Positions 470 to 16,820 of a DNA stretch of 17,144 nt are shown one piece after another. Below the pieces are notes generated by a model. The model saw only the letters and a program-made list of their open reading frames with translations, was not told the DNA's origin and made no database searches. A program made the position numbers and the translations under genes. This DNA comes from Nanopusillaceae archaeon (GTDB lineage: Archaea; Nanobdellota; Nanobdellia; Nanobdellales; Nanobdellaceae): positions 1 to 17,144 of the forward strand of contig JBMFJD010000013.1 in NCBI GenBank assembly GCA_049974095.1. The letters are read 5' to 3'. Position 1 is the first letter of the stretch, and each line of letters opens with the position of its first letter.

Positions 470-691
470 ATGGACAAAGAGAAGAAACTCAAAAATGTTA
501 CAACAACTGTACCAATAGAAATATATGAAAAAATTAAGGAAATGAAGATACCAATATCTAGACTTATATTACTAGGATACGAATCAGCCACTAAACAAAA
601 AGAAGAGGACAATCAAATAAGAGACTTACTAATAAGAATATATAACAAATTGTTAGATATTGAAGAATTAATAAAAAAGCCTAAATCTTAA
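470..691 (+). CDS. Ribbon-helix-helix (CopG/Arc/MetJ-like) DNA-binding protein, 73 aa
   Basis: The track ORF 452..691 starts at a TTG. The in-frame ATG at 470 sits 27 nt from the TATA-like box. MDKEKKLKNVTTTVPIEIYEKIKEMKIPISRLILLGYES fits a beta-strand/helix/turn/helix RHH pattern, followed by a coiled-coil-like tail. Confidence 0.55.
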   Translation: MDKEKKLKNVTTTVPIEIYEKIKEMKIPISRLILLGYESATKQKEEDNQIRDLLIRIYNKLLDIEELIKKPKS

Positions 692-1340
692 GAAAGTTAA
701 CATAGTTCCTATTCATATATAGTTTCTTTAAGAAATCATATAATTTTCTAATATTATTAACATCTCTTAGATTATACTCTACTAATTTATTAATATCGCT
801 ATATAAATCTTCTGTAAATTCATATTTTTCATCTAAATTTAACTCTTGAACTATATCTTTTAAAGAATAAAACTTAAAATCTCCTTTCTTTGCATACATA
901 TATATTGCTGTTGGTACAACAAGATCTAATATAGATACTATACTAAAGAATCTGGTCAGTGGTTTTATATTATACTTTCTAGCTTTATATATTAATAATG
1001 GAATATCTAAATACATTATACCATATCCAACGATTTGTCCAATTAACTTATTATATAATATTTTCCCAAGATGCTCTAATATTCTTTTTTCATCATCTAT
1101 ACCTCCATAAACAGTAAATGGTTCTAATTCATATTCATCAGTTACAATATTTCCACTATTTACAACATGGTTAACTGGTAATAACATAGCGACAGAGATT
1201 ATATGTACATTATCAAAACTAAGATTTTCATCAAATTTTGGATATGTTTCTATATCTATGAACCCGACATATCTATTATCATATAATCTAAACAAATTAT
1301 GAAAGTGTATATTCCAAGACCTTATCAACGCCTCATCCAT
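681..1340 (-). CDS. Stand-alone DEDDy-type 3'-5' exonuclease (RNase H-like fold; PolB exonuclease-domain / YprB-like), 219 aa
   Basis: Exo I-like motif YVGFIDIETYP. Exo II-like motif IVGYGIMYLDIPLLIYKARKYNI. Exo III-like motif YNLRDVNNIRKLYDFL (Y-x3-D). The first 19 codons of the track ORF (to 1397) run through the promoter region, so I start at the internal Met (MDEALIRSW, 1340), which is 28 nt from a TATA box. Confidence 0.6.
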   Translation of the reverse strand: MDEALIRSWNIHFHNLFRLYDNRYVGFIDIETYPKFDENLSFDNVHIISVAMLLPVNHVVNSGNIVTDEYELEPFTVYGGIDDEKRILEHLGKILYNKLIGQIVGYGIMYLDIPLLIYKARKYNIKPLTRFFSIVSILDLVVPTAIYMYAKKGDFKFYSLKDIVQELNLDEKYEFTEDLYSDINKLVEYNLRDVNNIRKLYDFLKKLYMNRNYVNFLKI

Positions 1341-1406
1341 TACTATATGATATAACAAATATTTATATGTGTTAAAGAATATAATTATATAAAACAAATA
1401 TTAATA
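1341..1406. promoter_or_regulatory. Divergent promoter region for the exonuclease and membrane-protein genes
   Basis: The element aaatatttatatgtgtt (1357-1373) is 28 nt from minus-strand ATG 1340. A second TATA-like box, ataattatataaaac, lies about 25 nt before plus-strand ATG 1407. Bases 1352-1373 are a perfect 22-bp reverse-complement match to 15740-15761. Confidence 0.5.
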
Positions 1407-5546: not shown

Positions 5547-6685
5547 GCTTGTTGTTGAGGTGGTTGTTGTTGGCCTTGAGGTTGTTGTGGTGCTTGTGGT
5601 ATAGATATATTACCAGATAATATACCTCTAATTTCTGCCAATTGTGCAGACAATTGCTTTAATTTATCTATTACATCATTTTGTACTGCAATAATTTTTT
5701 CTGGAGCTAATGATGTTTCTAATGTTTTAATCCTTGCTGAATATTCATTAATCAGATCTTGTAAGTGCTCAGATTTTGATCTTTCTTGAGCAACATCCAA
5801 TTGCATTGCAGTACTAGATTCTACTGCTGCGAGTGTCGTAGGTAATACAATATTCTTAATATCTCTCATTGTTTTTTCATATAGATTCAATGAAGCAGTA
5901 GATACCGTACTAGCTACAGAGTTATATACCTTCTGTATCTGATTCTGTACAGATATCATCTCAGCATTAACCTTCGTAGATTCTAAATCATTTACTAATC
6001 TATTAATTGTTTGTTGTAATTCACCAATTATCTTTTCTGCTGGTTCACCACCATACATTCTATTCAATAAGTATGCAGGTACCTTTACAAGATTACCAGT
6101 TGGATCCTTATATAATAATAATGTAATTGATTCTGGAAGTTGTGATGCTAAATTTTCTGGATGGAATATTGCTTCCCATAATGAACCAAAGGGAGGTGTC
6201 ATAAATTCTTCTTTACCAGCTTTAATAACAAAGGCAATACCACCATCAGGATGTATAATTATATCTTTTAAATATCCTAACTTTTGTTTTGTTATATCAT
6301 AAACAACAGGAGGTTTTCTGAATGGAAGTAATCCTGCAGATCTAGCCCTCCTTAATAGATCATATAGTGATATTGGTAATTTACCAGTAGCCTTTTCTTC
6401 CTCATATAATTCTTCTAATATCTTACCAAATGCTTGCGACCTTAATTTATTTAACTCCTCTTCTAATTGTTTAGCTTTCTCCTCGCTTAATATTTTTTCC
6501 TGTCTTTCCTTTAATAATTGCTCGGTTAAAATTCTTGTTTGCTCATCTCTTGGTAATTGGGATATATCAATATTAGTAGGTTTAATTACACCAGCTGCTT
6601 TACCAAACTTATACTTAATATAATTAATCATTAAAGAGAAGGTATATTTATAGGCTTCCAATAATGTTTTAAATGGATTCTTCAT
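5543..6685 (-). CDS. Coiled-coil protein, 380 aa, with a Q/P-rich C-terminal tail
   Basis: Heptad-like charged segments (EQLLKERQEKILSEEKAKQLEEELNKLRSQ, and the C-terminal half). Tail is PQAPQQPQGQQQPPQQQA. ATGA overlaps at both ends. Confidence 0.6.
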   Translation of the reverse strand: MKNPFKTLLEAYKYTFSLMINYIKYKFGKAAGVIKPTNIDISQLPRDEQTRILTEQLLKERQEKILSEEKAKQLEEELNKLRSQAFGKILEELYEEEKATGKLPISLYDLLRRARSAGLLPFRKPPVVYDITKQKLGYLKDIIIHPDGGIAFVIKAGKEEFMTPPFGSLWEAIFHPENLASQLPESITLLLYKDPTGNLVKVPAYLLNRMYGGEPAEKIIGELQQTINRLVNDLESTKVNAEMISVQNQIQKVYNSVASTVSTASLNLYEKTMRDIKNIVLPTTLAAVESSTAMQLDVAQERSKSEHLQDLINEYSARIKTLETSLAPEKIIAVQNDVIDKLKQLSAQLAEIRGILSGNISIPQAPQQPQGQQQPPQQQA

Positions 6686-8526
6686 TGTTTTCTAATTTCC
6701 TGAGTAATTTTCTCAGCCAATTCAGTAACACCTTTAGAAGAAGATTTTCTGTATATTATTATTGATATCAATGTAAATGCTAAGATTGCTATAACTATAT
6801 ATAATACATTACCTTCCAACCAAGAGGTAATATTGAATGATGGTTTTGGTGGAGGAATATATGGAGGTGAAATATAAATTGTATATGTAGTAGTATTAAT
6901 TAGAGGTCCTGAGATATCCAATTCATATTGTCCAATTGTAAAGTTATATGTTAATGATCCAGTACCAGTTGCTTCCTGTACTCTAGTACCATTAATATAT
7001 TCATATAATATTAATTGCGCCTGATCTACAAAATCACCTTGTGCTTGTATTGTATATTCTCCAGGTGTAGTTGGTAAATTACTTACAGTTATTGGTGTAT
7101 AACCAAGAAGGGTAATGTTTGTTAATGAATAACCTGGTGCGGATATTGTAATCATATTTTGACCTTCTTGTATGGGGAATGTTGTAGAATATGTAGGTAT
7201 ACCATTATAATAGAATGTTGCTCCAAGTACAGGTTGCATTGAATTACAATCATAAACACTCTGTATAGTTACATTAGTTCCATCTGGATAATATATGTTT
7301 CCATTATATTGCTGTCCTTTTGGAGATATTATATAACATAAAGGTCTTGGAGGTGCTTGAACACATGAGAAGAATGGTACATAATTTTGCGCATACGAGT
7401 ATATACAATATGTCTGTCCAGGAATAACAGGTATAGGATATTGATATGATAATGCTTGACCATTTGGTCCTATTACTAATATATTTGCATTTGGTATATA
7501 GTATGTGGATCCATTATAATATACATATGCGCCTTGAATAAATAGATAACCAGAAGATATTGTATAATTAACCTGTAATGGTAATTGAACAGTAGCGGGA
7601 ATTGGACTTGTTTGTTGTGTAGTAGATTGCGTATTAGTAATATTTTGTCCTAATGAACTTATAACATATAAATCAATACTGGTTTGAGCATTATAAACTT
7701 TATTATCAGCTTCTCCAGTATATACTATGACTATATTATATTGTCCTAGAGGCATTCCGGCAGTATTAATATATAAAGTCATATATGCATACTGTCCCGG
7801 TGCCAATGTTCCAACCCCTCCTTGAATATAAGCATTTTGAGGTGGTAATCCTTGAATAAGTACATTTAATATTGTTAAATTATCATTACCTGTATTTATA
7901 ATACCAATTGGATACTCATATGTTTGATTTGTATATAAGGTTAGTGATGCAAATGAATATAATGGAGTTATAGGATTAGATACATTTGTTGTTGGTGGTG
8001 TAGACACAGTAGTGGTAGTAGTAACATTAGAGGTTGGAGTTGTAGTAGTAACATTCTGTAAAGTAGTTGTAGTACCAACATTAAATACAAAACCATAAGT
8101 AATATTATAAGTAGTTAATGTGGTACCATTTGTATTATTGACATTTGGTACAAAAAAGAAACTTATCATACCAGATCCTGATTGCGCAACCGACAATTGT
8201 AATGGTGTAATACCAGTAAGTATAGAAATATTAGCAGAATAAGATTGCCCAGATGCTAAATATGAACCTGCAGAATATAATGCTGTAGGAGAACCAGAAT
8301 AGGTTATTGTAACATTATATGGAACCTCTGTATTATATATATTCAGATATACGAACGGAGAACTAGGGTTAAGATTACACATATATGAAGCCGGAGAAGA
8401 TTGGACACAGTTAGGTACTGTTATTGCTGGTTGAGCTTTAACAGAAAAAATAAATATTAGGGACATTAACAATACACTGATATACCTTCTGACCCTATCA
8501 CGAATTGTCTTTACTTCACCATTCAT
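6682..8526 (-). CDS. Membrane-anchored, heavily N-glycosylatable surface or adhesin-like protein, about 614 aa: signal peptide, Thr-rich linker, CARDB/Ig-like beta-rich regions, C-terminal TM anchor
   Basis: The track ORF begins at a TTG (8583). ATGs lie at 8541 and 8526. The 8526 ATG is about 28 nt from the TATA-like ttataaatataaat. N-terminus is MNGEVKTIRDRVRRYISVLLMSLIFIFSVKAQP. Linker is NVTTTTPTSNVTTTTTVSTPPTTNVS. There are dozens of N-x-S/T sequons. LAPGQYAYMTLYINTAGMPLGQYNIVIVYTGE resembles a CARDB-type beta-sandwich. C-terminal anchor is LYIVIAILAFTLISIIIYRK. Confidence 0.7.
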   Translation of the reverse strand: MNGEVKTIRDRVRRYISVLLMSLIFIFSVKAQPAITVPNCVQSSPASYMCNLNPSSPFVYLNIYNTEVPYNVTITYSGSPTALYSAGSYLASGQSYSANISILTGITPLQLSVAQSGSGMISFFFVPNVNNTNGTTLTTYNITYGFVFNVGTTTTLQNVTTTTPTSNVTTTTTVSTPPTTNVSNPITPLYSFASLTLYTNQTYEYPIGIINTGNDNLTILNVLIQGLPPQNAYIQGGVGTLAPGQYAYMTLYINTAGMPLGQYNIVIVYTGEADNKVYNAQTSIDLYVISSLGQNITNTQSTTQQTSPIPATVQLPLQVNYTISSGYLFIQGAYVYYNGSTYYIPNANILVIGPNGQALSYQYPIPVIPGQTYCIYSYAQNYVPFFSCVQAPPRPLCYIISPKGQQYNGNIYYPDGTNVTIQSVYDCNSMQPVLGATFYYNGIPTYSTTFPIQEGQNMITISAPGYSLTNITLLGYTPITVSNLPTTPGEYTIQAQGDFVDQAQLILYEYINGTRVQEATGTGSLTYNFTIGQYELDISGPLINTTTYTIYISPPYIPPPKPSFNITSWLEGNVLYIVIAILAFTLISIIIYRKSSSKGVTELAEKITQEIRKQ

Positions 8527-8541
8527 AAAATATGAATACAT

Positions 8542-8575
8542 ATTTATATTTATAAGTGTTGCTAAATGTATCAAA
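8542..8575 (-). promoter_or_regulatory. Probable promoter of the glycoprotein operon
   Basis: The minus strand reads acacttataaatataaat directly upstream of the two candidate ATGs. Spacing favours a leaderless start at 8526. Confidence 0.4.
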
Positions 8576-8583
8576 GCGTACAA

Positions 8584-8937
8584 AGATACTATGAACTTAT
8601 AACAAAATACGGGTTACTACTTACATATACTTGGCACTTAATAATTTATTACTAGTAAATACTTATAAATAAACTGTTTAAATGAGACGAATTAGGTAGT
8701 ACTCATTACGCTATACGAAGAACCACAGACTTGGCACTGGAAAAAAAGATGATAAATGAAACAAATTAATTTTAACTTGGAATTAATACAGGGCACACCC
8801 CCTACTATATTATTTATTGCCAAATATTATAAGTTTTCCGCCAAATATGGTGGTATTAGCATAAACAGTATATGGATTATATAGTGCTAGAATAATTAAT
8901 AATATGGCTAGAAAAATATATAATAAAGTTATAGGCC
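8584..8937. other. About 350-bp non-coding region with short dispersed direct repeats
   Basis: No ORF longer than about 12 codons with an ATG on the minus strand. acttggcac occurs at about 8629 and about 8729. gccaaatat occurs at about 8819 and about 8840. There is a G/C island gggcacaccccc (8791-8802) and a 6-bp hairpin aatgag-N15-ctcatt. Confidence 0.5.
8908..8937 (-). terminator. Possible oligo-T terminator after the RAMP-like gene
   Basis: Immediately after the TGA, the minus strand reads ggcctataactttattatatatttttct. Archaeal termination typically uses T-runs. Confidence 0.3.
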
Positions 8938-9558
8938 TCATCTTTTATTATTTACAGGTCTTAATTTACATACTCCATAACCTAAATTCCTACCTCTTCC
9001 TATTTTTATTGTTATTTCCTCATTTAAATCCGACTGTGCTTCAATTAAGAATCTACTACCATCAGTAATCGCTTCTAATATTACTGGTGATTTTGTTTTA
9101 CTATTATAGTTAGCATATAACATTAAGGATATATTTTCAGGTTTTACATCTGTTAATATAAAATCTGCACCACCATCATATTTCACTGCATATCTTAATG
9201 GTCTAATAAAGTAAGACCACCAGTCAATCCATGATAAATAATCCTCATAAGTTTTAATTTTACCAATATCTGCATGTTTTCTCGGAAATAAATAATCAAT
9301 TTTTATGTATCCATCGTCAAGTAATGGTTTCTCTAATTCCTTCTTTTTAATCTTATAAACCTCTTTCAGTGCTGAATCCCTGTCCATTTTCTCAAATAGA
9401 TCCTTATACTTTGCTATATCTTCCTCCGTTAGTACAATTTTATGCTCTAATATCTTAAAATCTTTCATATCCATTTTTGCAAATACCCTAAAAGAAAATA
9501 CTTCCTTATTCAATCCACCCAATATCGGAGTTATAACTTCTAGCTCGTATGATGCCAT
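8938..9558 (-). CDS. RAMP / Cas6-like protein, 206 aa (putative RNA-binding protein or endoribonuclease)
   Basis: The C-terminal glycine-rich loop IKIGRGRNLGYGVCKL fits the RAMP G-x-G-x3-G-x-G loop near the C-terminus (compare the Cas6e-type GIGxxKxxGxGLL). The N-terminal YELEVITPILGG resembles the beta1 'TPxxxGG' of Cmr1/Cas7-type RAMPs. It is the last gene of the operon. Confidence 0.4.
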   Translation of the reverse strand: MASYELEVITPILGGLNKEVFSFRVFAKMDMKDFKILEHKIVLTEEDIAKYKDLFEKMDRDSALKEVYKIKKKELEKPLLDDGYIKIDYLFPRKHADIGKIKTYEDYLSWIDWWSYFIRPLRYAVKYDGGADFILTDVKPENISLMLYANYNSKTKSPVILEAITDGSRFLIEAQSDLNEEITIKIGRGRNLGYGVCKLRPVNNKR

Positions 9559-9563
9559 ACATA

Positions 9564-9836
9564 CTAATATGTGTAAATACTCTTAAAAACCTTAAGGTTT
9601 GGTATTATTATATATAATTTTCCATCTACTTCAGATACAATACCCAATGATTTTAATATAGATATAACATCCTTATCAAATGAGTATGAATCTAGAAAGT
9701 ATATTACACCATCAAGAGTACCATAATTATCTATAAGCTTTTTAATAATATCCTGTATTTTTGGGTCTGTTATAAGATCAAGTAGTTTATATATATCTAT
9801 ATTATCTAAAATGAATAATCTATAACCTATAGACAT
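9564..9836 (-). CDS. Small winged-helix-like protein, 90 aa
   Basis: ISILKSLGIVSEVDGKLYIIIP resembles a recognition helix plus beta-wing. It overlaps the upstream gene by 17 nt and ends 5 nt before the next start. Confidence 0.4.
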   Translation of the reverse strand: MSIGYRLFILDNIDIYKLLDLITDPKIQDIIKKLIDNYGTLDGVIYFLDSYSFDKDVISILKSLGIVSEVDGKLYIIIPNLKVFKSIYTY

Positions 9837-11601
9837 CGTTTTCTAATTTAATTTCTTTTCTTGCAACCATTTCATTCAATATTCTGTCTAATACTAGTAA
9901 TACATTAGTTTCTCTCTTAATAATTATTTGCCTATTTTCTACCATATTTTGTATTATTTGTCTCAGTTCATTTAACCTTTTTGGACCAGTAGATAAAATA
10001 TTCTTTATAACACCTTCTAGATCTTTTTGTGATGATATAATATACTGTATCTTAATATTACAATATTTATCATAAAATACACCGAGGTATGATTTATAGA
10101 AATCTAATACATTCTTTGCCTGTAGTGTAGTATTCATAAAAGATAATAAATGCATTAATGAAAAAAATGCAATAGCATATTTTACTTCATCAATAGTAAT
10201 AGTAGTCCTATTATTTAATACAGCAAATATCTTAGCCATTTTACTTATTGTCTCCTTTCTTTCATATAAGAACTCATAGAATTGTGGATAAAATCTATTT
10301 ATATTTTTAGCCTCATCCTCAAATAACTTATCGAAATTACCAGTAATATTATAACTATTCAACATATGCTTAACAAATTGGATATAATCATACATATTAT
10401 ACCCAGATACCTGTAATGGTATATCTACAGCAATTGGTACTAAGAAATCTACTTTCTCAACATAGTATTGGAACATCCTTAACAAAGTATTATATAATGA
10501 TGTAAAGGACGAGAAATCTGTATACTTAGAAGATTTATATACTAATATTATATTTTTACCCTCATATAATGCTTTGTCTATCTTTATCTTTAATTCCTTA
10601 GTAGTCTGTTGTACATTATTAATTATCATATTATCATCAATAATAGACGGACTACTAGTAACCCTATAATGTAATATTGAAGCTATTTTATCAATATATA
10701 TTTGCTTGGCATCAATATACATTACAGAAAAGTTATAGAATAAATTGAATACTACAGGTAATGTGGTTAATACATCATCAATATCTAAATATGCTAAAAG
10801 ATGTAATAATTTCTCATCAGGTCTTAACTTTAATATATTTAACATATTATACATATTATACTCATAGTCGTCAATAATGTACAAACCTATCGCAAGATAA
10901 GCTTTCGTAACAACCTTCCTATGTATAATTTCCTGAGCAAGCTCCCTATCCATTTCAATAGCAATATATTTATATCTTAGCTTACTCTCCTTAGCAAACC
11001 TGTATAATTCTTCAGGTATTATTAAAGCAATATTACCCAATCTAGTATCTTCCCCATATATCTTTACCCCATTAAGAACAACCCTAGTAAATCCTACAAT
11101 AGATGATACATTACCCTTAAATGAACATACAGGACATGATAATGGAGGATATTTCTTTAATGATAATATATGATGACCTCTCTCACATGTAGATCTATTA
11201 ATGTATATCGATTCCATTACCACCCTATTTGGCTTAACATTTAATTCTAAAAGGTTATATACAGATTTTAATCTTTGATATAATGGATTCTTTAAATCTC
11301 TAATAATTAGGAATACCATAGGTATATTAGATAATATCTTTATTTTCTCATTTTCTAATGAGAATAATGCATATGATGAATTTTCAAGATAAGTTGTTAA
11401 ATCATTACCAGATAGCAAAAAGTTATATACATCATATAGTGGAGAATATTTATTATCTGGTTCATCACCCATGATATAATAATATTGATCTAGATCAATG
11501 AATAAAGAATTATTATATAATAAACCTACATGTATATCTGGTGGAGTATTTACAATAAAATTATATGGGTTCTTATTAGTAATTATTTTAGTAGGAAGCA
11601 T
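9820..11601 (-). CDS. Large Zn-ribbon protein, 593 aa. Either an MCM-like N-terminal domain with a degenerate ATPase and C-terminal wH, or an AEP primase-like N-terminus. Unresolved.
   Basis: C139/H143-H144/C156/C159 (STCERGHHILSLKKYPPLSCPVCSFKG) parallels the MCM Zn module of the neighbouring MCM (HEKCGYEF...ICPKCGESG) and is roughly collinear with it. There is no intact Walker A or B; the closest is IILVYKSSKYT. It has a lid-like helix ISKMAKIFAVLNNRTTITIDEVKYAIAFF and a wH-like C-terminus ...MVARKEIKLENDVYRL. Alternatively, LFIDLD (hhhDhD) and ERGHHIL resemble AEP primase motifs I and II. Confidence 0.35.
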   Translation of the reverse strand: MLPTKIITNKNPYNFIVNTPPDIHVGLLYNNSLFIDLDQYYYIMGDEPDNKYSPLYDVYNFLLSGNDLTTYLENSSYALFSLENEKIKILSNIPMVFLIIRDLKNPLYQRLKSVYNLLELNVKPNRVVMESIYINRSTCERGHHILSLKKYPPLSCPVCSFKGNVSSIVGFTRVVLNGVKIYGEDTRLGNIALIIPEELYRFAKESKLRYKYIAIEMDRELAQEIIHRKVVTKAYLAIGLYIIDDYEYNMYNMLNILKLRPDEKLLHLLAYLDIDDVLTTLPVVFNLFYNFSVMYIDAKQIYIDKIASILHYRVTSSPSIIDDNMIINNVQQTTKELKIKIDKALYEGKNIILVYKSSKYTDFSSFTSLYNTLLRMFQYYVEKVDFLVPIAVDIPLQVSGYNMYDYIQFVKHMLNSYNITGNFDKLFEDEAKNINRFYPQFYEFLYERKETISKMAKIFAVLNNRTTITIDEVKYAIAFFSLMHLLSFMNTTLQAKNVLDFYKSYLGVFYDKYCNIKIQYIISSQKDLEGVIKNILSTGPKRLNELRQIIQNMVENRQIIIKRETNVLLVLDRILNEMVARKEIKLENDVYRL

Positions 11602-12430
11602 ATCCTAATAATGGATTGGCAACACTAATAAAATATTTTAAGGCCTCTTCAATATACTGTTCCTTAACAATATTATCTCCATAACTTCTAGCAATTGCCT
11701 TCGCTAACCTTATTATTGTATTTACCCTCCTACCAGTAAAATATAAACCAGTATATGATATATTTAGATTAACCCTAATATTTTCTGGTACCTGTACATT
11801 AATACTTCTAACCGTGTTCAAATAATTCAATAGCTCATTATTATCAAAAGTATATGTCTCTTCAGTATGAGAACCAAACGATCTATTTAATAAAAATATT
11901 AGATCAAGTCTATCAATAACAGTACCTGGTAAATCAAGTTCATCTAAATAGTTCTTACTCTCAAAGAAATCCTTTCTTGGGTTAGCTGCAGCAAGTACTG
12001 CAAGATTAACATCATAAGATACATCAACCTTTGCCTTTTCAATAGTTACTTTAAGATCCTCTAATAACTCATTTAATGAATTTTTGAATGTCTTATTAGC
12101 CTTATCAAGCTCATCTATACATAATATATTATTTACTTTAGATATTGTACCATGTACAAACCCTACTTTTCTATCAGGATATCCATATAATCCAGGTATT
12201 GTAGTAGTTTGTGCATTAACATATAGAGAACCAGGTATATTACTAACAAATTTTAGGATATGAGTCTTACCAGTACCTGGTATCCCGTATAGTAATATAT
12301 GTATCGAATCTCTGAAGAATTGACTCTTACCAATAGATATTAATTGGTAAGCAATACCTAACCTTATCTTAGCATAAATATTACCCTTGAGTGAAGGGAA
12401 CAAACCATTAATAAGATCCTGGAAATCCAT
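11588..12430 (-). CDS. MCM-family AAA+ ATPase core without the N-terminal (Zn/OB) or C-terminal wH domains, 280 aa
   Basis: Walker A LLYGIPGTGKTHIL. Walker B ILCIDELDKA (MCM IDEFDK type). VTIEKAKVDVSYDVNLAVLAAANP matches KAGI...AAANP (pre-sensor-1 hairpin and sensor 1). VIDRLDLIFLL is the SRFDLIF arginine-finger region. TGRRVNTIIRLAKAIARS is the sensor 2 / lid. The protein starts where the MCM ATPase domain normally starts (FPSLKGNIYAKIRLGIAYQL). It overlaps the downstream gene by 14 nt. Confidence 0.8.
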   Translation of the reverse strand: MDFQDLINGLFPSLKGNIYAKIRLGIAYQLISIGKSQFFRDSIHILLYGIPGTGKTHILKFVSNIPGSLYVNAQTTTIPGLYGYPDRKVGFVHGTISKVNNILCIDELDKANKTFKNSLNELLEDLKVTIEKAKVDVSYDVNLAVLAAANPRKDFFESKNYLDELDLPGTVIDRLDLIFLLNRSFGSHTEETYTFDNNELLNYLNTVRSINVQVPENIRVNLNISYTGLYFTGRRVNTIIRLAKAIARSYGDNIVKEQYIEEALKYFISVANPLLGYASY

Positions 12431-12498
12431 ACTTTATATATTGTAAATAAATGTTTATATTTGTTCAAACATATAAATGTTTGTAATAATAATATCTT
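12431..12498. promoter_or_regulatory. Divergent promoter / operator region between the mini-MCM operon and the 68-aa gene
   Basis: taaatgtttata (12448-12459) is identical to 421-432. On the minus strand it gives tataaacattt 29 nt before ATG 12430. The palindrome caaacat-ataa-atgtttg (12466-12483) includes a tataaa 27 nt before ATG 12499. Confidence 0.5.
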
Positions 12499-12705
12499 AT
12501 GGATCAAATAGAAGCAAAATGTAGGGCAGTAAGAGATTTTTATGCACAATTTCTTGGAGAGGAAAATGTATCATATAAAGTTGAAAATGGCTTATGTTTA
12601 ATAGATATAAAGTTGCCACCAGACCAATTACAAAGAGAATACACAACTGTATTAGCTTATCTCGGTCCACAGCAACAACAAACACAGCAACAGCTACAAC
12701 TATAG
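12499..12705 (+). CDS. Small hypothetical protein, 68 aa, with a Q-rich C-terminal tail
   Basis: The ATG is well spaced from the TATA box. Composition is balanced (MDQIEAKCRAVRDFYAQFLGEENVSYKVENGLCLIDIKLPPDQLQREY...) and ends GPQQQQTQQQLQL. A T-rich tract follows. Confidence 0.5.
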   Translation: MDQIEAKCRAVRDFYAQFLGEENVSYKVENGLCLIDIKLPPDQLQREYTTVLAYLGPQQQQTQQQLQL

Positions 12706-16123: not shown

Positions 16124-16151
16124 ATATAGATATTATACAATTATCTTTATA

Positions 16152-16256
16152 AATTGTTATCACTGTTTACGAGGAATATACCCAACTACCATGCTTCCCA
16201 AAAAATATATATAATATATATTTTTTTACGCGTAAGGTTTTGTGTAGAACACATAT
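16152..16256 (+). repeat. About 105-bp repeat unit R1 (box1 - A/T spacer - box2)
   Basis: aattgttatcactgtttacgaggaatatacc...cttccc / aaaaaatatatataatatatattttttt / acgcgtaaggttttgtgtagaacacatatt. Aligns by eye with R2 at roughly three-quarters identity. Confidence 0.8.
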
Positions 16257-16274
16257 TATTATAGTAAAATATAG

Positions 16275-16380
16275 AATTGTTATTACTCTTTACGGGTATT
16301 ATACCTTCCATTGAGTTTCCCAAAGGAAATATATATATATTATTTTTTTACGCATGGGGTTTTGTGTAGAATATGTGTTC
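16275..16380 (+). repeat. About 105-bp repeat unit R2, direct copy of R1 about 123 bp downstream
   Basis: aattgttattactctttacgggtattatacc...gtttccc / aaaggaaatatatatatattattttttt / acgcatggggttttgtgtagaatatgtgtt. Confidence 0.8.
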
Positions 16381-16716
16381 TATTATATATTATTATTATA
16401 TAAATATTATAATATAATATAATAAAAATATTTATATATTATTATATAACTATTTATTACTAATAAATAGTAAAAAAATCTCTTTTAATATATATTTTTA
16501 ATAAATATTAATATGTGTTTATTATTATATTATATAATATTATTTATTATTATAACAAATATTTAACAAATATTAAAAAGGTATATATAAAGGAAATTTT
16601 TTACTATTTATTAGTAATAAATAATAACAATATTATTTATAAATATTATATAATATATTATTAATAATTATTATTTTTTAATAATAATTTTTTATATAAT
16701 AATAAATAATAATAAT
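16381..16716. promoter_or_regulatory. About 336-bp extreme A+T core; candidate DNA-unwinding element of a replication origin
   Basis: My hand count gives about 16 G/C in 336 nt, or about 95% A+T. No ORF. It is bracketed by R2 and inverted R3. Confidence 0.55.
16451..16623. repeat. Perfect 27-bp inverted repeat inside the A+T core (arms 16451-16477 and 16597-16623, 119-bp spacer)
   Basis: tatttattactaataaatagtaaaaaa versus ttttttactatttattagtaataaata, which are exact reverse complements. Each arm also holds its own 9-bp palindrome, tatttatta-N-taataaata. Confidence 0.85.
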
Positions 16717-16820
16717 AACATGTGTTTAACACAACAGGGTCTTCGTGAAAAATTATATAATATATATTTTTTTTCGGAGACCCCCTGGTAGGTCATATTC
16801 CTGGTAATAAGTAGTAACAT
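16717..16820 (-). repeat. About 105-bp repeat unit R3, inverted copy of R1/R2
   Basis: Its reverse complement reads atgttactacttattaccaggaatatgacctaccagggggtctcc / gaaaaaaaatatatattatataattttt / cacgaagaccctgttgtgttaaacacatgtt. It is collinear with R1 at roughly 65-80% identity per segment by eye. Confidence 0.7.

Follow-up and report, generated by a model that had tools for sequence, protein, structure and literature searches.

A four-gene unit with a stand-alone MCM motor in an archaeal virus: a candidate split helicase derived from MCM

A four-gene unit divergent from a viral MCM gene

We analysed a stretch of 17,144 nucleotides (nt) from contig JBMFJD010000013.1 (the whole stretch is hereafter called the window). 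The contig was binned with a Nanopusillaceae genome, and we read the element that it carries as an uncultivated hot-spring archaeal virus. The subject of this report is a unit of four genes on the minus strand, of which the gene for a short MCM protein (mini-MCM) is the first in the order of transcription. The genes and features of the locus are as follows; protein lengths are in amino acids (aa).

11588-12430, minus strand: mini-MCM gene, 280 aa
9820-11601, minus strand: gene of a large zinc protein, 593 aa
9564-9836, minus strand: gene of a small protein, 90 aa
8938-9558, minus strand: gene of a RAMP-like protein, 206 aa
12770-14902, plus strand: full-length MCM gene, 710 aa; context, outside the four-gene unit
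12431-12500, minus strand: putative promoter region, within the spacer between the four-gene unit and the divergent MCM gene
8584-8937, minus strand: non-coding gap of 354 nt that ends the four-gene unit, ahead of the structural-gene block

The list of open reading frames (ORFs) agreed exactly with an earlier note on this DNA, made from the letters alone (hereafter, the original prediction), both in the positions of the four genes and in their packing. The mini-MCM and 593-aa genes overlap by 14 nt (11588-11601), the 593-aa and 90-aa genes overlap by 17 nt (9820-9836), and the 90-aa gene is followed by the 206-aa gene after a gap of 5 nt (9559-9563). The complete MCM that had been placed back-to-back with the unit is the 710-aa ORF, which diverges from the mini-MCM gene across a 339-nt spacer. 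Its product matched Pfam MCM_OB, MCM (E 7e-66) and MCM_lid, and gave a weak match to the archaeal MCM winged helix.

Two exact copies of the motif AAACATTTAT[AT]T were found in the spacer (12445-12456 and 12471-12482), 15 and 41 nt before the first ATG of the unit. A search with this motif gave 7 matches in the window versus 2.6 expected, and none of them fell inside the four-gene cluster, which is without internal intergenic space. We infer that 12431-12500 acts as the promoter of the four-gene unit. At the other end, a T5 run (8912-8916) lies 22 nt past the last stop codon, and a T7 run is present at 8741-8747; from such oligo-T signals, which are usual in archaeal termination, the gap at 8584-8937 would be the terminator of the unit. 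The spacer between the two MCM-type genes also contains a 68-aa ORF (12499-12705, plus strand). It was called as a gene in the related contigs L001-L004 (62-68 aa), and a 61-aa protein encoded in another part of the replication region of relative L010 resembles it, with the motif YKVEN..C.I in common. The spacer ORF is predicted to encode a conserved small protein.

The ratio of nonsynonymous to synonymous substitution rates (dN/dS), determined versus two relatives, was 0.09-0.26 for each of the four genes, indicating purifying selection. Thus, all four are real coding genes; long ORFs are improbable by chance at the 28% GC of the window sequence. Comparison of the window with L002 gave dS values of 0.21-0.31 for the MCM and mini-MCM genes and of 0.97-1.44 for the 593-, 90- and 206-aa genes. 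This jump suggests a recombination breakpoint close to where the mini-MCM and 593-aa genes meet, and hence a mosaic history and modularity.

The gene-neighbourhood check proposed in the original prediction revealed the four genes in synteny in five lineages (that of the window, and L010, L011, L012 and L013), with the order mini-MCM, large, small and 206-aa protein kept at protein identities of ~20-58%. In L010-L013, overlaps of 7-23 nt occur at junctions one and two, and the third gene is separated from the fourth by 8-22 nt. On the four contigs that are long enough, a divergent MCM gene (683-711 aa) was present upstream, with the same structural block downstream. Identity of the 593-aa protein was 83-97% in L001-L003, 37-38% in L008 and L012, and 31-32% in L010, L011 and L013. 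From their gene order, these relatives are assigned to one collinear family of archaeal viruses of ~17-20 kb or larger, which probably infects Nanoarchaeota. They are known from metagenome contigs only, several of them apparently from hot springs. Searches for relatives of the module in IMG/VR and in INPHARED (GenBank phage and archaeal-virus records) found none, a GTDB genome search with the 593-aa family found nothing, and a scan of 1.84 billion representative proteins found just two distant relatives of the 593-aa protein.

Properties of the four proteins

The 280-aa protein matched Pfam MCM (PF00493) with 103.2 bits (cut-off 23.3; E 1.4e-29) and the NF040949 MCM domain with E 1.2e-24, in agreement with its earlier description as an N-terminally truncated MCM ATPase; MCM_lid gave a weak match. 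It aligned to residues 317-613 of the neighbouring full MCM with 31% identity. Walker A (GIPGTGKT), Walker B (CIDELDK), sensor 1 (AAANP) and sensor 2 (GRR) were all present, and the arginine-finger motif was DRLD in the window protein and DRFD in 8/8 other members. The cores GxPGTGK[TS], DE, AA[AS]NP, DR.D and RR were conserved in nine mini-MCMs from five lineages and aligned with the motifs of full MCMs. The mini-MCM begins at the equivalent of MCM residue 317 and ends after the lid; neither an N-terminal OB/zinc tier nor a C-terminal winged helix is present, and the protein gave no match to MCM_N, MCM_OB or a winged helix. The helix-2 insert, the external hairpin regions and the region before Walker A are shorter than in full MCM. 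By its motifs, the 280-aa protein is a bona fide stand-alone MCM AAA+ core plus lid in which all ATPase motifs are intact, and its sequence retains all catalytic and most DNA-translocation elements.

Mini-MCMs form a distinct clade: proteins of 278-286 aa were retrieved at E<=1e-129, and the next MCM at 1e-43. Cross-lineage identity was 55-59% for mini-MCM, versus 29-31% for full MCM and 31-38% for the 593-aa protein. The mini-MCM is thus better conserved than the full MCM, which is the opposite of what is expected for a decaying duplicate. A virus-borne MCM ATPase without the N-terminal tier is also encoded by Thermococcus prieurii virus 1, where the gene is annotated "C-terminal part of the MCM2-like helicase". 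However, identity to the mini-MCM is only 30% over half the protein, and the virus shows no sign of 593-, 90- or 206-aa partners, given that the 593-aa protein was unmatched in the phage collection.

Other short MCM matches were considered as independent mini-MCMs and rejected, being pieces of split cellular MCM genes. Contigs L018 (5295-7133) and L019 (5359-7361), which are of DPANN type, resemble the viral locus in having short ORFs with the MCM AAA+ domain only. In both, an MCM_N/OB ORF lies directly upstream, a winged-helix ORF lies downstream and TBP is adjacent, as in one cellular MCM gene broken up by splitting or by a frameshift; either DPANN-type archaea have genuinely split MCM genes here, or the assemblies contain frameshift errors. 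The viral mini-MCM clade, in contrast, lacks such flanking pieces and has its own conserved start.

The 593-aa protein was divided into the following regions.

Residues 1-125: unmatched domain, of which the first 45 aa are strongly conserved (PYNF..N, IDLDQY)
Residues ~126-200: zinc ribbon, with C139, H143, C156 and C159
Residues ~200-375: region without a P-loop
Residues 377-481: MCM-like arginine-finger strand and lid
Residues 505-593: helical tail, possibly winged-helix

The description of this protein as a Zn-ribbon protein with no intact ATPase motifs held. The four zinc-motif residues were invariant in 8/8 members of the family, and C139, C156 and C159 aligned with C176, C195 and C198 of the H/C-C-C motif of the viral MCM. 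GxxGxGK[ST] was found nowhere in the protein, and the residues aligned to Walker A, Walker B and the arginine finger were LPVVFNLF, NNVQQ and K/R/Y, respectively. No Pfam family, MCM included, matched at threshold, no significant family was found in any library scanned, and searches of PDB sequences with the 593-aa and 206-aa proteins gave no match.

Profile comparisons by hhalign, each of them weak but collinear with the others, nevertheless pointed to a relation of the 593-aa protein to MCM. Its profile aligned with those of viral MCMs over 347 collinear columns from the zinc motif to the lid (score 35.6, P 0.002). Reversed profiles, used as a control, scored 16-18, and column shuffles that kept composition gave a mean of 17.0 (standard deviation 3.0, maximum 33.5), with 0/160 reaching the observed score. 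The zinc region aligned with a 119-sequence MCM profile with P 1.8e-4 and a probability of 48%. Residues 377-481 aligned with the arginine-finger strand and lid of the mini-MCM profile (P 0.0045), placing "RKETISKMAKIFA" on "RRVNTIIRLAKAIA", and 0/120 shuffles reached the observed score in this lid test. In single-sequence tests of the 593-aa profile, MCMs scored up to 36.3 and three MCMs of other lineages scored 22-24; P was 0.001-0.003 for MCMs of the window lineage, 0.05-0.09 for the other three, and 0.23 for Cas10. In a Foldseek search with a poor model of the protein, 12 of the 16 top chains were MCM or Mg-chelatase AAA+, none of them significant. These findings indicate that the 593-aa protein is probably MCM-derived and catalytically dead. 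There is moderate support for the view that it has retained the MCM zinc subdomain, the arginine-finger strand, the lid and a C-terminal helical tail, and that Walker A, Walker B and the arginine finger have been lost. That the protein is, most likely, itself a degenerate MCM paralogue was missed in the original prediction.

Among the four proteins, conservation between lineages was lowest for the 90-aa protein (20-31% identity). Its earlier designation as winged-helix-like received weak support from the sole matches obtained: the window protein matched the JetB C-terminal domain of PADLOC (E 7.7e-5), and single members of the family gave weak matches to DnaD_N (E 0.032) and to the MCM_C winged helix (E 0.13). 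The protein is possibly a winged helix.

In the 206-aa protein, motifs were found in a Csm3-like order: an N-terminal LEVITPI.aG, D30, PV..E...GS.F and a glycine-rich loop, GR.R..G[YF]G. D30 was conserved in all members examined, and the loop, in the form G/A-R-x-[RK]-x-x-G-[YF]-G, lay 5-12 residues from the C-terminus in all members. Neither the window protein alone nor the family consensus matched Pfam or NCBIfam. When family members were scanned one by one, the recurring families were almost solely RAMPs of CRISPR systems, as listed here.

PF03787 RAMPs: homologue on contig L016, E 0.0011, 19.9 bits versus a gathering cut-off of 22.1, over nearly the whole model
TIGR01907 Cas6e: three members, E 0.0046-0.14, with the C-terminal end on the C-terminal end of the model
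TIGR01899 Csm5: two divergent members, E 0.017 and 0.15, same region in both
TIGR02581 Csx7: one member, E 0.062

The earlier RAMP call thus stood insofar as weak matches converged on RAMP models; however, every RAMP profile match of the family was below the curated threshold, those to Cas6e, Csm5 and Csx7 far below. When the 206-aa profile was compared with 36 Thermus thermophilus pTT27 proteins, 7/7 RAMPs were in the top 11, none of them individually significant; this order was recognised only in hindsight, and no formal probability attaches to it. In the alignment with T. thermophilus Csm3, "PVILEAITDGSRF" was placed on "PRTTERVPAGARF", and "IGRGRNLGYG" on "LGGHISRGYG"; the helix that normally lies between these two Csm3 motifs is absent from the 206-aa protein. 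Like type III Cas7-group RAMPs (Csm3, Cmr4, Csm5 and Csx7; PF03787) and Cas6e, the protein has a C-terminal glycine-rich loop, an E...G[ST].F strand, and an N-terminal T/P-h-h-h-G strand (h, hydrophobic) followed by a conserved Asp, and its size is near that of a small Csm3. Unlike type III RAMPs, it is virus-encoded and adjoins MCM-type genes, with no array or other cas genes. Judged from these motifs and matches, it is quite likely a member of the RAMP superfamily, an assignment that we hold slightly more firmly than the MCM derivation of the 593-aa protein.

The homologue on L016 (CAZYDL010000177.1, 3972-4697) is 39% identical to the 206-aa protein. Its contig (7.4 kb, 37% GC) also carries a TnpB-like gene (592-1998), a resolvase fragment and a PIN-like gene. 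The contig was binned as Desulfobacula, which seems questionable, and its element has no relation to the virus. The presence there of a conserved pair of winged-helix and RAMP genes was considered and rejected; the small neighbouring genes were not detectably related to the 90-aa family.

A split helicase and rival readings of the module

We tentatively favour the reading that the unit is an accessory MCM-derived helicase module of an archaeal virus in which the motor and the DNA-binding collar reside on separate polypeptides. Gene 1 would provide the stand-alone MCM AAA+ motor, and the product of gene 2, the probably dead MCM paralogue, would serve this motor in trans, be it as its DNA-binding collar, its loader or its processivity clamp. 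The products of genes 3 and 4 would bind nucleic acid, either the displaced single strand or RNA, and would supply the motor with its substrate or target. The four genes would be transcribed as one unit from the spacer common to them and the canonical viral MCM gene, and the module would work next to the canonical MCM in genome replication, recombination or the processing of R-loops. Both the co-assembly of the four products and this function are what we infer for the module. The motor would be a homohexameric mini-MCM ring docked on a separate ring or adaptor, rather than a mixed ring; the docked homohexamer is more plausible because the mini-MCM has both cis and trans residues of the ATP site and the 593-aa protein is without an arginine finger.

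The design has experimental precedent in the dissection of a Sulfolobus MCM, whose isolated AAA+ domain is a minimal helicase (Barry et al. 2007, PMC1807962). In that study, the N-terminal half of S. solfataricus MCM supplied in trans stimulated the AAA+ domain and altered its processivity and substrate choice (PMC1807962). An AAA+ motor with an N-terminal half in trans is the arrangement proposed here for the virus. The S. solfataricus proteins were products of engineering, whereas the viral module would be a natural and conserved two-gene arrangement, and its trans partner would also have a dead AAA+ remnant and an unmatched N-terminal domain of 125 aa. With respect to archaeal MCM itself (homohexameric; PF00493, PF17207 and PF17855), the 280-aa protein has the complete AAA+ core and lid, and the 593-aa protein appears to retain the zinc subdomain and lid. 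However, the viral motor is without the N-terminal tier and the C-terminal winged helix, the putative collar is without Walker A, Walker B and the arginine finger, and the two functions would be on separate polypeptides, with the motor gene first.

Several results weigh against the split-helicase reading. The hhalign probabilities for the relation of the 593-aa protein to MCM were 8-48%, and one shuffle came as close to the observed score as 33.5 versus 35.6. When the zinc region was removed, the score of the remaining 593-aa sequence versus full MCMs was within noise, and residues 1-125, the most conserved part of the protein, gave no hhalign match. The AlphaFold2 models, built from shallow alignments, were unusable for both the 593-aa protein (predicted local distance difference test score, pLDDT, 38.3) and the 206-aa protein (pLDDT 45.9, with Foldseek matches that were noise). 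A dead subunit without an arginine finger cannot complete the ATP sites of a mixed ring, and this blurs the stoichiometry. Overlaps of 4 nt between genes are the rule all along the window genome; therefore, tight packing alone does not single out the four genes. The synteny was observed within one collinear virus family and is therefore no proof that the genes are functionally linked. There is no mini-MCM or 593-aa gene on the 7.4-kb L016 contig, and the 206-aa gene is therefore separable from the module. In view of the genome-wide packing, the one-family synteny and this homologue without MCM-like genes, the earlier statement that the four genes probably act together is not established.

The genome-wide packing and the homologue on L016, together with the rise of dS versus L002 from 0.2-0.3 to 1.0-1.4 past the mini-MCM gene and the modularity that it suggests, favour a view in which the four genes are co-transcribed without forming one machine. 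We consider this view doubtful, although it is the strongest rival. The mini-MCM and 593-aa proteins would be a replication pair, and the RAMP-like protein, with or without the small protein, would be independent of them. Its role might lie in the binding or processing of RNA, or else in acting as an anti-CRISPR decoy by resembling a Cas7 backbone subunit of host effector complexes; however, the 206-aa protein matched neither an anti-CRISPR family nor a PADLOC model. The retention of gene order and translational coupling in five lineages, even at 20-46% protein identity, also speaks against separate functions.

Type IV CRISPR-Cas systems consist of a plasmid-borne Cascade-like complex and a DinG helicase. 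A CRISPR-derived module of Cascade-like or type IV-like kind, carried by the mobile element for defence versus competitors or for counter-defence, would assign the 593-aa protein as large subunit, the 90-aa protein as small subunit and the 206-aa protein as a Cas7-like backbone holding an RNA guide, with MCM in place of DinG or Cas3. The RAMP models were the only recurrent family matches of the 206-aa family and its motifs are Csm3-like. As a works-like analogy only, the virus-borne combination of a helicase with a large zinc protein, a small protein and a RAMP resembles type IV, in which a RAMP-containing set of small and large subunits likewise occurs with a helicase on a mobile element. With the 593-aa profile, the two Cas10 proteins ranked first and second among the 36 T. 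thermophilus proteins; however, their scores (18-19) were noise. Several findings make this origin unlikely. The window contains a single RAMP gene and no CRISPR array, other cas gene, tRNA or Rfam RNA. In like-for-like single-sequence tests, the 593-aa protein scored far better versus MCM than versus Cas10. The 90-aa protein resembles a winged helix and not the helical bundle of Cas11, and no PADLOC model matched the 206- or 593-aa proteins. Unlike type IV systems, the module is without Cas5, Cas6, Csf1 and an array, its helicase is an AAA+ MCM and not an SF2 DinG, and its large protein looks MCM-derived. Identity of the 593-aa protein as a Cas10 or Cas8 large subunit was rejected, the scores being at the noise level.

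Helicases fused with primases occur in plasmids and prophages, and the 593-aa N-terminus might be a divergent archaeo-eukaryotic primase (IDLD plus zinc finger) that works with the mini-MCM as an accessory primase-helicase. The hhhDhD-like LFIDLD (residues 33-38) of the 593-aa protein was invariant, phrog_3022, annotated "DNA primase", matched the protein at E 0.002, and the window encodes no recognisable primase. The PHROG match, however, spans residues 445-566, that is, the lid and tail and not a primase domain. No conserved histidine (motif II) was found between the acidic motif and the RD dipeptide, the N-terminal 128 residues were unmatched by hhalign, and primase models of Pfam and NCBIfam matched 0/6 members, even at E up to 10. 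The primase identity of the N-terminus was rejected, since the DxD-like IDLD alone is present and the PHROG match is in the lid and tail; we regard the primase-helicase as very unlikely.

If the 593-aa protein is a degenerate MCM paralogue, a split helicase derived from MCM becomes the better-fitting picture, and a protein of Cas8/Cas10-like or primase type a less fitting one. A further arrangement that keeps the dead MCM adaptor appears to us quite unlikely, slightly more so than the CRISPR-derived module and less so than the primase-helicase: a Cas7-like RAMP filament that holds RNA or single-stranded DNA could be coupled through this adaptor to the MCM-type AAA+ motor. Such a machine would be either an array-less RNA-guided system, with MCM replacing Cas3 or DinG, or a relic of a RAMP-helicase association ancestral to class 1 effectors.

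The original prediction did not recognise the combination as a described system, and we likewise found no described system with these four parts in the libraries and literature searched. Every part is a certain or a probable member of a known superfamily. If the split-helicase reading is true, the module is a natural MCM dismantled into a free motor and a catalytically dead, zinc-bearing partner. It would bear on how heteromeric MCM rings with specialised or inactive subunits evolved from homohexamers, and it would offer a compact thermophilic system in which to study communication between the two tiers in trans. The 206-aa protein would be one of few RAMP-fold proteins outside CRISPR loci, virus-encoded and tied to a replication-type motor, and this tie makes a new anti-defence or RNA-linked function conceivable. 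In addition, the module is the mark of a family of viruses that was absent from the IMG/VR and INPHARED searches.

Other features of the window and a second mini-MCM

GC content along the window was 22-32%. A block of genes without family matches looks like a virion module. It includes a 633-aa protein rich in Thr, Asn and Ser, located as follows.

6682-8583, minus strand: gene of the 633-aa Thr/Asn/Ser-rich protein, which is hydrophobic at its N-terminus and in a segment at its C-terminus

This gene heads the structural block, which is collinear in all relatives, and contains a 27-nt threefold tandem repeat at 8011-8082. The product is probably a glycosylated envelope or adsorption protein. 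The sole other candidate nucleic-acid enzyme in the window is encoded by a 238-aa ORF (681-1397, minus strand), which gave weak signals of an RNase H-like/DEDD exonuclease (PF13482, E 0.045; exonuclease part of a PHROG DNA polymerase family, E 0.005).

A second mini-MCM (MGC9133248.1, P0018) was found in the same Nanopusillaceae bin, on a contig of 59.9 kb; it is 56% identical to that of the window. This contig could be an integrated or larger relative of the virus, and as such would bear on the host assignment.

The region 16150-16780 is AT-rich and non-coding, and had no Rfam match. It contains two units of ~122 nt, whose 55-nt cores (16195-16249 and 16317-16371) are 80% identical and each of which has a perfect A6(TA)n...T7 palindrome, and a 103-nt inverted repeat (16427-16529 versus 16545-16647). 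A GC-clamped hairpin lies at ~16735-16790. The region 16150-16780 is probably the replication origin or another cis-acting region.

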